Positions 50,220 through 54,914 of a stretch of DNA of 64,000 bases are shown piece by piece. Every line of letters starts with the position of its first letter. Positions within the stretch are counted from its first letter, which is position 1. Made by a program: the position numbers and the translations under genes. The notes beneath the pieces were generated by a model. That model was given only the letters and a program-made list of their open reading frames with translations. It was not told where the DNA came from and ran no database searches. Origin of the DNA: Gemmatimonadota bacterium (GTDB lineage Bacteria; Gemmatimonadota; Gemmatimonadetes; Gemmatimonadales; JACORV01); contig JBGOSS010000015.1 in the NCBI GenBank assembly GCA_041476105.1, positions 2,829 through 66,828 of the forward strand, given 5' to 3'.

Positions 50220-50771
50220 GTGATCTGGCCATTCGTGGACCTGTGGGAGCGGGCGCTGACGTACGACGCGTTCGTGAAGACGTCGACCCAGCACTGCGGC
50301 CTGTGGACCGGCGTCTACCGGCTGGCGCGCGTGCCGGCATGGGCGGTGGAGAAGACGGCCCGCCTCGAGGGGGGCTTCCGCCTGGTGGTGCTGGCCGAGG
50401 ATTGGTGCGGCGACGCGACCAACACGGTGCCCGTCCTGGCGAAGTGGGCCGAGCTGGTGCCCAACGTCGAGCTTCGCATCCTGCGCCGGGACGAGCATCC
50501 CGAGGTCATGGATCGCTACCTCACGGACGGGGCGCGGGCCATTCCGGTCGTGATCGTGCTGACGGATCAGATGGAGGAGCTGGGCTGGTGGGGTCCCCGG
50601 CCCCGGGCCCTGCAGGGCTGGACCCTCGCGCAGCGCTCCATCGGCCGCGACAAGAAGGCGCTCTATCCCGAGGTGCGGCGCTGGTACGCGAAGGACAGGG
50701 GGGAGACGACGCTGCGGGAGGTGCTTGCCGTGCTGGAGCGCGCCCGCCATGTTGAAGGCGTCCCGACCTGA
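50220..50771 (+). CDS. Thioredoxin-fold family protein
   Basis: GGAAGGAG SD upstream of the GTG. LVVLAEDWCGDATNTVPVLAK. Followed 16 nt later by the peroxiredoxin. Confidence 0.7.
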   Translation: MIWPFVDLWERALTYDAFVKTSTQHCGLWTGVYRLARVPAWAVEKTARLEGGFRLVVLAEDWCGDATNTVPVLAKWAELVPNVELRILRRDEHPEVMDRYLTDGARAIPVVIVLTDQMEELGWWGPRPRALQGWTLAQRSIGRDKKALYPEVRRWYAKDRGETTLREVLAVLERARHVEGVPT

Positions 50772-50787
50772 CCGGAGCCGCCTCGTG

Positions 50788-51369
50788 ATGCGTTCGTCCT
50801 GCCTCGCCGCCGCGCTCGTCGCGTTCGCCGCTCCCGCCGCGCGCGCGCAGCAACCGGCCGCCCCCGCCGCGCCGCCGGCCCTCGAAGTCGGGGCCGCCGC
50901 GCCGGACTTCAGCCTCTCGGGCGCGACGCGCTTCGGGGTCCTGCGGGATCCCGTCCGCCTCAGCGACTTGCGCGACAAGACCGTGGTCATCGCCTTCTTC
51001 TACCGGGCCCGGACCCGCGGCTGAACCATCCAAATGAACGCGTACCGTGATCAGTACGCGCAGGTTTTCAAGAACGGCAAGGACGTGGTCCTCATCGGCA
51101 TCAGCACCGATGCCGACACCATGCTCGCCTCCTGGGCGCGCGATTCGCAGTTCCCGTTCCTGTTCCTCAGCGATCCCGACGGGTCGGTGGGCCGCGCCTG
51201 GGGCGCGACGGTCCCGGGTCGGAACATGGATGCGCGAAACCTGTTCATCGTGAGGAACGGGCAGGTCGTCGAGCGCATGGTGCCGTTCCGCGAAGTGGAC
51301 CCGCAGGCGTATGTGACGCTGGGTGCCGCGGTGGCCCGGCTGACGCCGCAGGACAGTACCAGGAACTAG
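50788..51369 (+). CDS. Secreted peroxiredoxin (AhpC/TSA-Bcp-like) with in-frame UGA at the peroxidatic Cys position: candidate selenoprotein
   Basis: ORFs 50725..51024 and 51034..51369 are in the same frame, separated only by TGA 51022-51024. The joined sequence reads KTVVIAFFYRARTRG-[UGA]-TIQMNAYRDQY...VVLIGISTD...FPFLFLSDPDG...ARNLFIV, giving the T-x-x-C(U) and conserved Arg context. Signal peptide MRSSCLAAALVAFAAPAARAQ. Confidence 0.6.
51039..51060 (+). promoter_or_regulatory. Candidate bacterial SECIS stem-loop
   Basis: CGCGTAC-CGTGATCA-GTACGCG: perfect 7-bp stem and an 8-nt loop containing GU. Starts 14 nt after the UGA. Confidence 0.45.
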
Positions 51370-51854
51370 AGGGCGCGGCGGATCGCCGCGTCGAGGTCCT
51401 GGTCGGCCCCGCTGCCGGTGTAGACCACGCGGCCGCGGCCGTCCAGGATGACGATGTACGACGTTGCCGGCGCCTCGAAGGTCCTCACCGCGGCGCCGGT
51501 ATTGTCGTAGTAGAACCGGAACGGCATCGGGTGCCGCGCGAGATGGCGCTTCATGCTGTTGAGCGACTGGTTCACCCCCACCCCCACCACCACGAACTCC
51601 ACCCGGCCGCCGTAGCGCCGCTGCGCCGCCTGCATCCGGGGCAGCAGCGCCTCGCAGATCTCGCACCAGGTGGCCCAGAACTCGAAGAGCACCGGCTTCT
51701 TCCCGACGAAGGTCGCCGCGAGATCGACGGCCCGGCCGCTGGTGTCCTGGACCAGCGCCGCCGCCGGCACGCTGCCTAACGACAATCCGATGTCCTGCGC
51801 GCGCAGCGCCGGCGCGGCGAGCAGTGAAGCGAGCACGATCGCGGCGATCTTCAC
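51366..51854 (-). CDS. TlpA/ResA-like periplasmic thiol:disulfide oxidoreductase
   Basis: Signal peptide VKIAAIVLASLLAAPALRAQ. Active site FWATWCEIC. GTGA overlap with ccdA. Confidence 0.85.
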   Translation of the reverse strand: MKIAAIVLASLLAAPALRAQDIGLSLGSVPAAALVQDTSGRAVDLAATFVGKKPVLFEFWATWCEICEALLPRMQAAQRRYGGRVEFVVVGVGVNQSLNSMKRHLARHPMPFRFYYDNTGAAVRTFEAPATSYIVILDGRGRVVYTGSGADQDLDAAIRRAL

Positions 51855-52549
51855 AGCGTGGTCCCGACCTGGATGAAGTAGTACTCGGCGACGCCGATCA
51901 GAATGATACCACCGACCTTCTTGATCCGGGCCATCCAGATGCCCGCGCGGGGAAGGGCCGCGAGAGTCCCCGAGAACACGCCGACGGCAATCAGGATCGC
52001 GGACATGCCGAGCGAGAAGACGAACAGGTAGAGAAAGCCCAGCACCCCACTCCGCGTCGCCGCGACCCAGGTGAGCACCGCCGCAAACGCCGGCGCGCCG
52101 CAGGGCGCCGCCACGATGCCGCTGGTGGCACCGAGGAGAAACACCGACGGGTACGAACCCCCGCCGAGGGAGCCGGCCCAGGCCAGCAGGCGCCGCGGCG
52201 CGGCCACCGGGATGACGTCCAGCATCGCGAGGCCCGCGAGCAGGAGCAGGTTGCCGGTGGCGAAACGCACCCACGGGTTGGCGCTGATCGTCCCGAAGAG
52301 CTGGCCCGTCATCCCGGCGAGGAGGCCGAGCACGGCGTAGAAGATCGAGAGGCCGAGGACGTAGGTCAGGGTGAGACCGACGGCCCGTACCCGGGACGTG
52401 CCCTCGCGCCGGCTGCCGGCCAGGAGACCCGCGGTGATGGGGATCATCGGGTAGATGCACGGCGTCAGGCTGGTGAGCAGGCCGGCGCCGAAGAGCGCGG
52501 CGAGGGCCGCGAAGGGATTCTGGGAGAGGGTCTGCGAGAGGCCTTGCAC
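51851..52549 (-). CDS. ccdA: Cytochrome c biogenesis protein CcdA / DsbD-type transmembrane electron transporter
   Basis: TSLTPCIYPMIP and VAAPCGAP cysteine motifs. Six TM helices. GTG 52549 is the chosen start. Confidence 0.85.
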   Translation of the reverse strand: MQGLSQTLSQNPFAALAALFGAGLLTSLTPCIYPMIPITAGLLAGSRREGTSRVRAVGLTLTYVLGLSIFYAVLGLLAGMTGQLFGTISANPWVRFATGNLLLLAGLAMLDVIPVAAPRRLLAWAGSLGGGSYPSVFLLGATSGIVAAPCGAPAFAAVLTWVAATRSGVLGFLYLFVFSLGMSAILIAVGVFSGTLAALPRAGIWMARIKKVGGIILIGVAEYYFIQVGTTL

Positions 52550-52569: not shown

Positions 52570-53769
52570 TCAGAACGCGAACATGCTGAGGACCGCGATG
52601 TTCGGCCCGGTGTCGGTCCAGCCGACATCCACGCCGGTCAGGCTTCCCTTCGAGAGTTGAAGACGGAAGCCGGCACCCACGGTCCACTCATGCCGGTCGA
52701 AAGAGGGGCTCTCGTCTGGATCCCAGAGGAGGGCGGCGTCGCTGAACAGGTAGCCCCACAGGGCGCCGTGACGCAGGTGCGCAGGATCGTCGGTCGGCAC
52801 CAGCAGCTTGCGCCGCAGCTCGACCGTGAGCATCGCGTGGTTCGACGAGAGCTCCCGGCCTCCCCCGTGCAGACGGACGGTGCGCGCGCCGACGATGCCG
52901 TCGTAGGGAAGCCACGACGTGGTTTGCTCCCAGGCCAGGAAGAAGGGGAGCGAATCGCTGGCGAGCGTGAGCCGTTGCCGCAGCGCGAGCACAGTACGCC
53001 CGCTGTCGCCCGCGGCGAGGAATTCGCGCGCCCCCAGCAGGTAGCGTCGGTAGCTCAGGCCGCTCTGGCCGGCCGGCGCGTGCAGCCGCCCCGACACCGC
53101 GATGGCCTCCAGGAACACGCCGCGCGTCGTCGCGGCCCAGTCATCGCGGGTGTCGAGCAGTAGCCCCAGGCGCGCCTCGGCGCTGCTGCGGCGGACCACG
53201 TCCGGGACGGCGCCGGCCACGGCGGCCTCGAAGAGGCTCGGTCGTTGGGTGAGCTGCATGGCCTGGTAGTCGCGGAGCTGGCCGGCCAGGTGTAGCCAGA
53301 GCGGCCCCGCGATCCGCCGCTGGATGGTGGCGAGGCCGGTCGAGCGAAGCAGCGAGTAGCGGTAGTAGAGATTGCCGTACCGGGACTGGAGCGAGTCCTC
53401 CAGCGGGGACTCGTTTGCCAGGCCGAAGAAGGGCGTTCGCTGCATGCGCTCGATGCGCGCCAGGGCGAGAAAGCGCCAGCCGGGCACCAGGGCCGGGGCC
53501 TCGAACACCACCGTCCCCTCCGTCGAGCCGGTGGTGAAGCCGTAGCGGCCGATGGCCCGCAGAGCCGCCGTCATCCACGACGGTCCCCGCCCTGGCGCCT
53601 TGGCGTACTCCAGGCCGATCCCCAGGCCGATGCCCCACCGCCCGCCGGCATCCGGCATCACCAGGCGGCCCAGCCGCCATCGGCCGTCCGCCGTGTCTTG
53701 CGCGCGCGCGCTGCTGGCGCCCGCGAGCAGCAGCAGCGCCAGCGCCGCCGGGCGCGTCAGAAGGCGAAT
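52570..53769 (-). CDS. Omp85/BamA-family beta-barrel outer membrane protein lacking POTRA (paralog 2)
   Basis: Signal peptide (I)RLLTRPAALALLLLAGASSARAQ, YRYSLLRSTGLATIQRR, DTRDD, and terminal ...LSMFAF. No ATG/GTG/TTG is available at the signal peptide, so the start was placed at ATT 53769. Confidence 0.65.
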   Translation of the reverse strand: MRLLTRPAALALLLLAGASSARAQDTADGRWRLGRLVMPDAGGRWGIGLGIGLEYAKAPGRGPSWMTAALRAIGRYGFTTGSTEGTVVFEAPALVPGWRFLALARIERMQRTPFFGLANESPLEDSLQSRYGNLYYRYSLLRSTGLATIQRRIAGPLWLHLAGQLRDYQAMQLTQRPSLFEAAVAGAVPDVVRRSSAEARLGLLLDTRDDWAATTRGVFLEAIAVSGRLHAPAGQSGLSYRRYLLGAREFLAAGDSGRTVLALRQRLTLASDSLPFFLAWEQTTSWLPYDGIVGARTVRLHGGGRELSSNHAMLTVELRRKLLVPTDDPAHLRHGALWGYLFSDAALLWDPDESPSFDRHEWTVGAGFRLQLSKGSLTGVDVGWTDTGPNIAVLSMFAF

Positions 53770-54914
53770 GAGGTCCCCACGCCGAGGCCGAAGCCGCCGT
53801 CGTTCCGGCCCAGGTCGAGACCGAGAATCGTGGACTTGGAGAACTGGAGTCGGGCGCCGACGCCGGTGGACCAGTGCCAGTTGGTGATGGTGGGATCCTC
53901 GCCCTCGTTCCAGAGTCGTCCCGAATCCACGAATGCGAGCAGCCACAGGCGCACCGGGCTCGCCGCGACCGGGGCGTCGAGGTACTTGTAGCGCAGGTCG
54001 GCACTGAACACCGAGCGGTTGGGCGCGACGAAGCGGCCGATCGAAAAAAGGCGCAGGCTTGTCGGCCCGCCGAAACCGTCCTCGGGGTACCAGGTCGTCA
54101 GCCGCTCGTAGGCGATGAAGACCGGCACCGTGCCGCGCGCGATTTCGGCGCTTTGCCGCAGGCCGATCACCCACTGCTCGAGCGAGCCCAGGTGGACGAA
54201 CTCGCGCGCGCTGAGGAGCCAGCGGGTGTAGTCGTACCCCGAGACCGCGTGGACCCCCATCACCTCGAAGAAGACGCCGCGCGAGGGCGAGGCTTCCTCG
54301 TCGCGGGTGTCGAAGAGCAGGCCTCCGCGTACTTCGACGTTGTCCCGTGCCAGGGTGTCGGCGGTGCCGCCGGCGAGAAGCTGCGCGAACAACGTGCTGT
54401 CGCCCAGGGCGCGCGCGCGATAGTGGCGCCACTGCGCGGCGCCGTGCAGCCGCAGCGGCCCCACGAGGCGGCGCTGCACCGTCGCGAGTGCCGTCGTCCG
54501 CAGCAGCGAGTAGCGGTAGAAGGAGGTGGGCTGGCTGTCGCTGATCGTCGAGCTGTTCCCCTGGCCGTAGAAGGGCACGCGCTGCAGGCGCTCAGCGCCG
54601 AGAATGCCCAGGAGACGCCAGTCGCGCCAGCGGCCCGGCGCGTCGTAGGAGAACAGAGCCCCGCGCGTCCCGCTGGTGGCGATGCGCGCGTCCATGCCGA
54701 AGGCCCGTGCCAGCGGCGGCGGGCGCCGGTTCGGCGACGTCCGCCAGCCCGCGACCAGGTGGCCCGCCAGCCCCTCATCGCTGTCGTAGGTCGGGTAGGG
54801 GAGCACCCGGAACCACATCGGCGTGACCGCCGAGCGTTCGACGTCGGCGCGCGTGTAGCACGCCTGGAGGGCCACCGCCAGCAACGGCAGCAGCGCCGCC
54901 GCGGGACGCCTCAC
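53757..54914 (-). CDS. Omp85/BamA-family beta-barrel outer membrane protein lacking POTRA (paralog 1, lipobox LQAC)
   Basis: MRRPAAALLPLLAVALQAC, YRYSLLRTTALATVQRR, DTRDE, GVGARLQF...LDLG, and terminal GVGTSFAF. Confidence 0.75.
   Translation of the reverse strand: MRRPAAALLPLLAVALQACYTRADVERSAVTPMWFRVLPYPTYDSDEGLAGHLVAGWRTSPNRRPPPLARAFGMDARIATSGTRGALFSYDAPGRWRDWRLLGILGAERLQRVPFYGQGNSSTISDSQPTSFYRYSLLRTTALATVQRRLVGPLRLHGAAQWRHYRARALGDSTLFAQLLAGGTADTLARDNVEVRGGLLFDTRDEEASPSRGVFFEVMGVHAVSGYDYTRWLLSAREFVHLGSLEQWVIGLRQSAEIARGTVPVFIAYERLTTWYPEDGFGGPTSLRLFSIGRFVAPNRSVFSADLRYKYLDAPVAASPVRLWLLAFVDSGRLWNEGEDPTITNWHWSTGVGARLQFSKSTILGLDLGRNDGGFGLGVGTSFAF

Follow-up and report, generated by a model that had tools for sequence, protein, structure and literature searches.

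The window analysed here is a 64,000-nt stretch from a Gemmatimonadota bacterium (GCA_041476105.1, contig JBGOSS010000015.1, positions 2,829-66,828 of the forward strand), and its subject in what follows is a gene at window positions 50788-51369 that encodes a peroxiredoxin (Prx) interrupted by an in-frame UGA codon. Translation of this plus-strand interval gives one frame in which TGA 51022-51024 is the sole internal stop. A first-pass annotation of the sequence had described two open reading frames (ORFs) in a common frame and parted only by that TGA, which translation bears out (50725-51024 and 51034-51369), and had read the joined ORFs as a full-length Prx/Bcp fold. The joined product (193 aa, with U entered as C) matches the Pfam family AhpC-TSA (PF00578; E=5e-23, 81.8 bits against a cut-off of 26) over residues 34-162, so that the domain spans the TGA as that reading requires; it also matches Pfam Redoxin. 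The explanation that best accounts for the evidence, and one that is very probably correct, is that 50788-51369 encodes an exported BCP/PrxQ-like AhpC/TSA peroxiredoxin with selenocysteine (Sec, U) as its peroxidatic residue. The features of the gene, among them a hairpin resembling a selenocysteine insertion sequence (SECIS), are as follows.

50788-51369, plus strand: candidate Sec-peroxiredoxin gene, 193 codons including the UGA; stop codon TAG at 51367-51369
50788-50847, plus strand: predicted signal peptide of the Sec-translocon type, MRSSCLAAALVAFAAPAARA, with cleavage before QQ and then a Pro/Ala-rich linker (heuristic call)
51001-51024, plus strand: active-site motif Y-R-A-R-T-R-G-U, with Tyr at 51001-51003, Thr at 51013-51015 and the putative Sec codon UGA at 51022-51024
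51025-51038, plus strand: 14-nt spacer ACC AUC CAA AUG AA between the UGA and the hairpin
51039-51060, plus strand: SECIS-like hairpin CGCGTAC/CGTGATCA/GTACGCG, with a 7-bp stem formed by 51039-51045 and 51054-51060
51235-51237, plus strand: conserved peroxiredoxin Arg, R150 (in DARNLFIV), matched in the alignment by the conserved Arg in both 2ywn and 3drn

In the Sulfolobus BCP 2ywn, matched by a sequence search of the Protein Data Bank, the residue opposite the TGA is the peroxidatic Cys (R-T-R-G-U-T versus F-T-Q-V-C-T), and T76, U79 and R150 of the product align with the matching residues of that protein, R150 being nearly invariant in the family alignment (A3). Both the placement of the UGA at the catalytic Cys of a T-x-x-U motif and the downstream Arg in DARNLFIV had been proposed from the sequence at the outset, and both agree with these alignments. 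An AlphaFold2 (AF2) model of the Sec-type homologue P0004, with a pLDDT of 91.4, has the Sec position where helix 76-87 begins and resembles BCP, Prx1 and AhpE structures, with a target-normalised TM-score of up to 0.85.

Conservation of the UGA was assessed at 80 loci taken from species-representative genomes, out of 198 matching stretches, from which 77 distinct sequences were compared. The loci come from Gemmatimonadales/Gemmatimonadota metagenome-assembled genomes (MAGs) and are 55-70% identical to the window. All 77 distinct Gemmatimonadales sequences (about 80 species-level MAGs) have TGA at the aligned codon, and the frame is kept on both sides of it. As the search pattern MNAYRDQY picks the Sec type, this uniformity denotes a large conserved clade and not an absence of Cys forms. 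Both halves of the gene are under purifying selection, since the ratio of nonsynonymous to synonymous variation (pN/pS) lies below 1 on either side: the 40 codons ahead of the TGA give 0.33, and the 80 codons beyond the hairpin give 0.47. Identical copies of the gene are present in three other assemblies.

A protein search returned homologues of two classes. Those of the first are full-length (about 190-200 aa), share 50-65% identity with the product and carry RTRGCTIQM, with Cys at the Sec position in 98 of 98. Those of the second, about 111 aa long and 72-89% identical, all start with MNAYRDQYAQ, as do at least 12 further metagenomic clusters, and these common starts result from gene callers splitting the gene at the same TGA. 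The expectation of the first-pass annotation that orthologues would hold either Cys or UGA at this codon thus describes what was found, with UGA in the 77 close relatives and TGC in more distant ones. No full-length U-containing protein occurs among the protein-search matches, in which the fragments are named at most “peroxiredoxin Q/BCP”; the gene appears to be unannotated as a selenoprotein, public gene calls giving fragments of 78 and 111 aa. On the question of whether the Sec forms are monophyletic, a neighbour-joining tree of the approximately 160-aa proteins gives 4 changes and is unreliable. Two side observations concern the distribution of the gene. The MAG JBGQFX01 carries two copies on separate contigs (L051, L069), both with the TGA and the hairpin. 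Two further loci are labelled as lying outside Gemmatimonadota, L036 (VBAL01, “Bacillati bacterium ANGP1”) and L058 (QHWJ01, “Acidobacteria bacterium gp6”); the L036 protein is the same as that of the Gemmatimonadetes locus L040, so that mis-binned contigs are likely.

The two types differ systematically at one further active-site position. The canonical Pro of PxxxTxxC, at codon -7, is replaced by Tyr in the window gene, and across the 77 Sec-type sequences this codon specifies Phe in 53, Tyr in 23 and Ser in 1, versus Pro in 98 of 98 Cys-type homologues. Among the sequences compared, the coupling of Pro with Cys and of Phe/Tyr with the predicted Sec is strict. Two homologues of source “src”, P0004 and P0117, have Phe at -7 and, at the very position of the UGA, Leu or Val; these latter residues are probably the product of protein-level assembly that bridged the stop through erroneous reads, and not real variants. 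The only Cys of the window product, C5, lies inside the signal peptide, leaving the mature protein with no Cys besides the putative Sec. As this provides no resolving Cys, the enzyme would be of a 1-Sec type that needs an external reductant.

The hairpin is a further feature of the nucleotide sequence. As initially described, it is a perfect 7-bp stem 14 nt past the UGA with G-U in its loop, which is borne out at 51039-51060; the 8-nt loop CGUGAUCA occupies 51046-51053 and places the G-U at +26/+27 from the U of the UGA. Its folding energy is -9.4 kcal/mol. All 77 sequences have a 7-bp stem and an 8-nt loop at a fixed distance from the TGA, with 100% of the cells paired, an invariant loop sequence and an invariant spacer length. 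The closing pair is C-G in 40 and U-A in 37, with no mismatch and no wobble (n=77). It is formed by the third bases of the Asn +5 and Ala +12 codons, where the exchange is synonymous, and a rough neighbour-joining tree implies at least four independent switches. Covariation in the hairpin, which had been predicted for orthologues, is therefore present in the form of a closing pair that changes and is never broken. Codons +6 to +11 (GCG TAC CGT GAT CAG TAC) are synonymously frozen in 77 of 77 sequences, save for GAT in 73 and GAC in 4, whereas codons beside the hairpin vary freely. A search for a larger conserved structure from -30 to +90 with RNAalifold found none, only the 7-bp hairpin. Codon choice in the flanks of the UGA is also odd for DNA of 70% GC, with CGA at -4 (67/77) and CAA at +3 (72/77), and this hints at a possible sequence constraint beyond the hairpin.

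A stem-loop shortly 3' of the UGA with a G in a small apical loop is the criterion for a bacterial SECIS (PMC1088965), and the hairpin, with 7 bp, a G in an apical loop of 8 nt and a start 14 nt after the UGA, has these features, in keeping with its first description as compatible with such an element. Like bacterial SECIS elements generally, it lies right after the UGA inside the coding sequence and carries G-U in the apical loop. The bSECISearch program of Zhang and Gladyshev, dating from 2005, reportedly uses a UGA-to-loop range of 16-37 nt, within which the distance seen here falls. In the SECIS of E. coli fdhF, the loop G-U is at +23/+24. By that numbering the G-U of the window hairpin is 3 nt, or one codon, further out, and the hairpin differs from the fdhF element also in lacking a bulged U and in its invariant 8-nt loop.

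Evidence for the decoding machinery comes from the lineage. Metagenome contigs were scanned for selA with a high-GC back-translation of the pyridoxal phosphate motif of SelA (GDKLLGGPQ), 120 selA loci were ranked by tetranucleotide similarity to Gemmatimonadales loci, and the top locus, L169, was used as a query. Its SelA is 100% identical to an NCBI L-seryl-tRNA(Sec) selenium transferase assigned to a Gemmatimonadaceae bacterium, and more than 12 further matches at 58-63% identity are named as Gemmatimonadaceae, Gemmatimonadetes or Gemmatimonadota. The gene context is conserved as thrS-valS-Big_5-selA-HAD-like hydrolase-purN-purH, followed by a TMEM260-like gene (L210-L224, L169), and this speaks for selA as a resident rather than a stray gene; selB, selD and tRNA-Sec do not lie near selA in these loci. 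To our knowledge, selA has no role besides the synthesis of Sec-tRNA(Sec). The evidence for the predicted Sec trait thus concerns the lineage, Gemmatimonadota, in whose MAGs selA occurs, and not this particular genome.

The genes on either side of the peroxiredoxin gene also encode redox proteins.

50220-50771, plus strand: Thioredoxin_9-family gene (PF14595, 3e-35), upstream of the Prx gene across a 16-nt gap; it ends in TGA
51366-51854, minus strand: TlpA/ResA-like periplasmic thioredoxin that carries WCEIC and a signal peptide; its gene runs convergently to the Prx gene
51851-52549, minus strand: CcdA-like membrane electron transporter (DsbD_TM, PF02683, 1.4e-45)

The TlpA-like protein matches Pfam Redoxin, AhpC-TSA and Thioredoxin_8, and its best NCBIfam models are ResA and TlpA, both below cut-off. 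Together with the CcdA gene, it adjoins the Prx gene in about 60 of the 80 loci, and the pair is found also beside the Cys-type gene P0007. The Thioredoxin_9 gene lies 5' of the Prx gene only in the window, L011, L013, L016 and the Cys-type locus L086, and with so few loci this association is loose. At the 5' end of the Prx gene, ATG 50749 is a possible alternative start (MLKASRPDRSRLV-MRSS...). The stretch SRPDRS recurs in L013; since the Thioredoxin_9 gene extends into this region with its 3' end (stop 50769-50771), conservation of SRPDRS may belong to that gene. At the other end, the Prx stop (plus strand, TAG 51367-51369) and the convergent TlpA-like stop (minus strand, 51366-51368) overlap in the palindrome CTAG. 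The CcdA-like protein scores best in NCBIfam against “rhodanese/DsbD fusion-like selenoprotein TsoB” (146 bits, cut-off 805), in whose DsbD part the match lies; the resemblance is confined to that domain, and the CcdA-like gene has no in-frame TGA. Downstream of CcdA lie two paralogous Omp85-family outer-membrane proteins, at 52570-53658 and 53757-54914 on the minus strand, both ending in F-A-F and matching NCBIfam Omp85_fam below cut-off (3.6e-21 and 1.8e-40). Omp85 genes recur by CcdA in L004, L006, L007, L013, L016 and L048.

Export of the product is predicted from its N-terminus. All 64 readable N-termini among the loci show, by a simple heuristic, a short charged start, a hydrophobic h-region and A-x-A/QQ. 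The first-pass annotation had regarded the protein as an exported selenoprotein and as unusual on that account; the predicted signal peptide and the conserved CcdA/TlpA neighbourhood speak for the first part, but exported selenoproteins have precedents. Among these are the Tat-exported FdnG and predicted DsbA/DsbG-like selenoproteins. The signal peptide predicted here has no twin-arginine motif. Precedents of this kind include entries in the family table of PMC13188914.

Several observations weigh against the interpretation of the gene as an exported Sec peroxiredoxin. The decoding machinery is incomplete in the sequences searched: tblastn with E. coli SelA, SelB and SelD, together with ARAGORN, covered the window plus 1.11 Mb from 83 related loci and found no selA, selB, selD or tRNA-Sec; none of five Gemmatimonadota selA records (CANIGK01, CANIWH01, JACREJ01, JARIEY01, DASRAP01) is from a MAG that bears the Sec-Prx gene; and Gemmatimonadota selB, selC and selD were looked for and not found. 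The hairpin taken alone is no stabler than shuffled sequence (z = -0.07 for a 71-nt fold in DNA of 70% GC), so that its significance depends entirely on comparison, and within that comparison six of the seven pairs never vary, leaving the covariation to a single pair. It has no bulged U, and scans against Rfam, at the gathering threshold for the window and permissively for 50950-51150, gave noise only. The Pro of PxxxTxxC, termed absolutely conserved in Prxs (PMC3322552), is missing from the Sec forms. The signal-peptide call depends on a simple heuristic, and a subclade of about 14 loci has no TlpA/CcdA nearby. Finally, the interpretation is built on sequence and model analysis.

Four other explanations have been weighed against this evidence. 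The one that survives best, although it is quite unlikely, is that the UGA is recoded to a residue other than Sec, either to Cys via a tRNA(Sec)-like tRNA or by hairpin-stimulated read-through that inserts Trp, Cys or Arg. That selB, selC and selD were looked for in the lineage and not found, that the hairpin lacks the bulged U of the E. coli fdhF element, and that selenium incorporation is a prediction from sequence are all compatible with such a mechanism. However, the UGA lies precisely at the Sec-for-Cys site of the verified TxxU Prx family (PMC13188914), the hairpin agrees in position and loop G with bacterial SECIS features (PMC1088965), and selA is widespread in Gemmatimonadota; moreover, insertion of Cys would leave unexplained both the loss of TGC and the change from Pro to Phe/Tyr in step with the UGA.

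Less probable again is a true stop at the UGA, from which a 78-aa secreted peptide and perhaps a 111-aa protein starting at ATG 51034 would result, the hairpin then having a regulatory or RNA-stability role. An ATG does lie 9 nt past the TGA and is accepted by gene callers, but the corresponding Met is conserved within the uninterrupted Cys-type proteins (CTIQM) and is thus a residue of the family and not a start. The three codons between TGA and ATG are likewise conserved, as Thr-Ile/Val-Gln. In the AF2 model, strands 44-69 come before the UGA and the active-site helix runs across it, so that neither fragment would hold the Prx fold. No U-run follows the hairpin.

Equally improbable is the proposal that the hairpin is a by-product of the encoded peptide A-Y-R-D-Q-Y-A, in which GCG-TAC and TAC-GCG are reverse complements, and has no role in decoding. 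Y-R-D-x-Y is indeed conserved throughout the family, Cys types included, and the invariance of six of the seven pairs would be expected on this proposal. The same peptide is nonetheless encoded differently where no UGA is present: in four Cys-type genes (L086-L089), Y-R-D-Q-Y is coded with TAT, CGC and GAC, the hairpin is absent, and the equivalent place folds with 0 to -3.9 kcal/mol versus -9.4 in the Sec gene. The Sec types have instead fixed CGT (77/77) and GAT (73/77), which are poor codon choices at 70% GC, and the sole variable pair changes on both sides jointly (37 versus 40) and never singly.

The weakest explanation, and one that can practically be discarded, is the alternative offered by the first-pass annotation, a Cys peroxiredoxin gene that is dead through a nonsense mutation of TGC to TGA or only seems so through a base-call error: it needs one base change from TGC or TGT and would fit the two fragments in public gene calls, but it is excluded by a TGA at the same codon in 77 of 77 sequences from about 80 independent MAGs and in many metagenomes, by purifying selection on both halves, by the identical copies in three other assemblies, and by the derived features that accompany the TGA (the hairpin, Asn at +5 and Phe/Tyr at -7), while a single copied contaminant is countered by the 55-70% identity of related loci to the window. 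A reassigned genetic code was separately rejected. TGA terminates 31 of the 48 confident ORFs in the window with high GC at third codon positions (GC3), including the gene directly upstream of the Prx gene, which means that the code is standard and the recoding local. Scanning for further TGA-split ORF pairs with high GC3 on both sides yielded only ordinary gene junctions.

The candidate Sec peroxiredoxin can be compared with several known systems. TxxU peroxiredoxins of PF00578 are experimentally verified selenoproteins, as exemplified by PrxU of Eubacterium acidaminophilum (Sohling et al. 2001, as cited in PMC13188914); 253 Sec-Prx sequences come from the GOS metagenomes (PMC2398784), and repeated Cys-to-Sec conversions have been reported (PMC1794560). 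The window gene resembles PrxU-type proteins in its AhpC/TSA fold, in having its predicted Sec in place of the peroxidatic Cys in T-x-x-U, in the stem-loop after the UGA, and in the occurrence of Cys orthologues alongside. The motif PxxxTxxU is described as highly conserved in Sec peroxiredoxins (PMC13188914), whereas the window gene has [F/Y]xxxTxxU, a predicted signal peptide, no second Cys or Sec, and a Gemmatimonadales host. The PrxU-type precedent cited in the first-pass annotation accordingly holds for the family but not for orthology, as the product falls below the cut-off of the PrxU equivalog NF040737 (42.7 bits against 270). A literature search found no paper linking Gemmatimonadetes or Gemmatimonadota to selenocysteine or selenoproteins. 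Sec peroxiredoxins as such are already known, and what sets this gene apart from the forms described is the predicted signal peptide, the lack of a second Cys, the altered motif and a phylum for which no selenoprotein literature was found.

Two Cys enzymes are also close to it. PprX of Caulobacter crescentus is a periplasmic BCP/PrxQ-type peroxiredoxin that is reduced by TlpA with electrons from ScsB/DsbD (PMC3322552). The window gene likewise encodes a BCP-like peroxiredoxin with a signal sequence, and the predicted path from a DsbD-family transporter through a TlpA-like protein to the peroxiredoxin is the same, with the partner genes adjacent; PprX differs in using Cys, in keeping PxxxTxxC, in having a resolving Cys, and in being served by ScsB and not CcdA. 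The 1-Cys peroxiredoxin AhpE of M. tuberculosis (1xxu, 4x0x) shares with the window gene the lack of a resolving Cys and gives a target-normalised TM-score of 0.82-0.83 with the P0004 model, but it works in the cytoplasm with a Cys and retains the canonical Pro.

A mechanism consistent with these comparisons can be proposed. The UGA at 51022-51024 would be decoded as Sec with the hairpin at 51039-51060 serving as a bacterial SECIS, which would recruit SelB with Sec-tRNA(Sec) while the ribosome is on the UGA. The signal peptide would then direct the product to the cell envelope by way of the Sec translocon, and there the selenolate would reduce H2O2 or organic peroxides and be converted to a selenenic acid. 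As there is no further Cys or Sec in the mature protein, its recycling would depend on an external thiol partner. The likeliest reductant is encoded next door: a periplasmic CxxC thioredoxin of the TlpA-like type, which would in turn be kept reduced by the neighbouring CcdA with electrons from cytoplasmic thioredoxin. The gene neighbourhood thus suggests a periplasmic 1-Sec peroxidase fed by a TlpA/CcdA relay. The broader proposition, that Gemmatimonadales run a selenium-dependent peroxide defence in the envelope, built on an exported 1-Sec peroxiredoxin with [F/Y]xxxTxxU and a dedicated relay from CcdA to a TlpA-like protein, is somewhat favoured over its negation.

Gemmatimonadales are abundant, largely aerobic soil bacteria. 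The gene occurs in at least 198 species-level genomes of the order, where it is called as fragments, so that selenoproteome surveys and soil metaproteomics would miss it; recognising it would put selenium use and an envelope selenoenzyme into a major soil phylum. It also offers a natural pairing, as its Sec and Cys orthologues share an operon context yet differ systematically at one more active-site residue, Pro versus Phe/Tyr; such a pair bears on what Sec offers over Cys and on what the protein must change. If the interpretation is true, the strict association of residues seen in about 175 orthologues, Pro with Cys and Phe/Tyr with Sec, would record the changes to a thiol-peroxidase site that selenium needs, and the compact, invariant hairpin would serve as a clean model SECIS in a lineage with an uncharacterised SelB.

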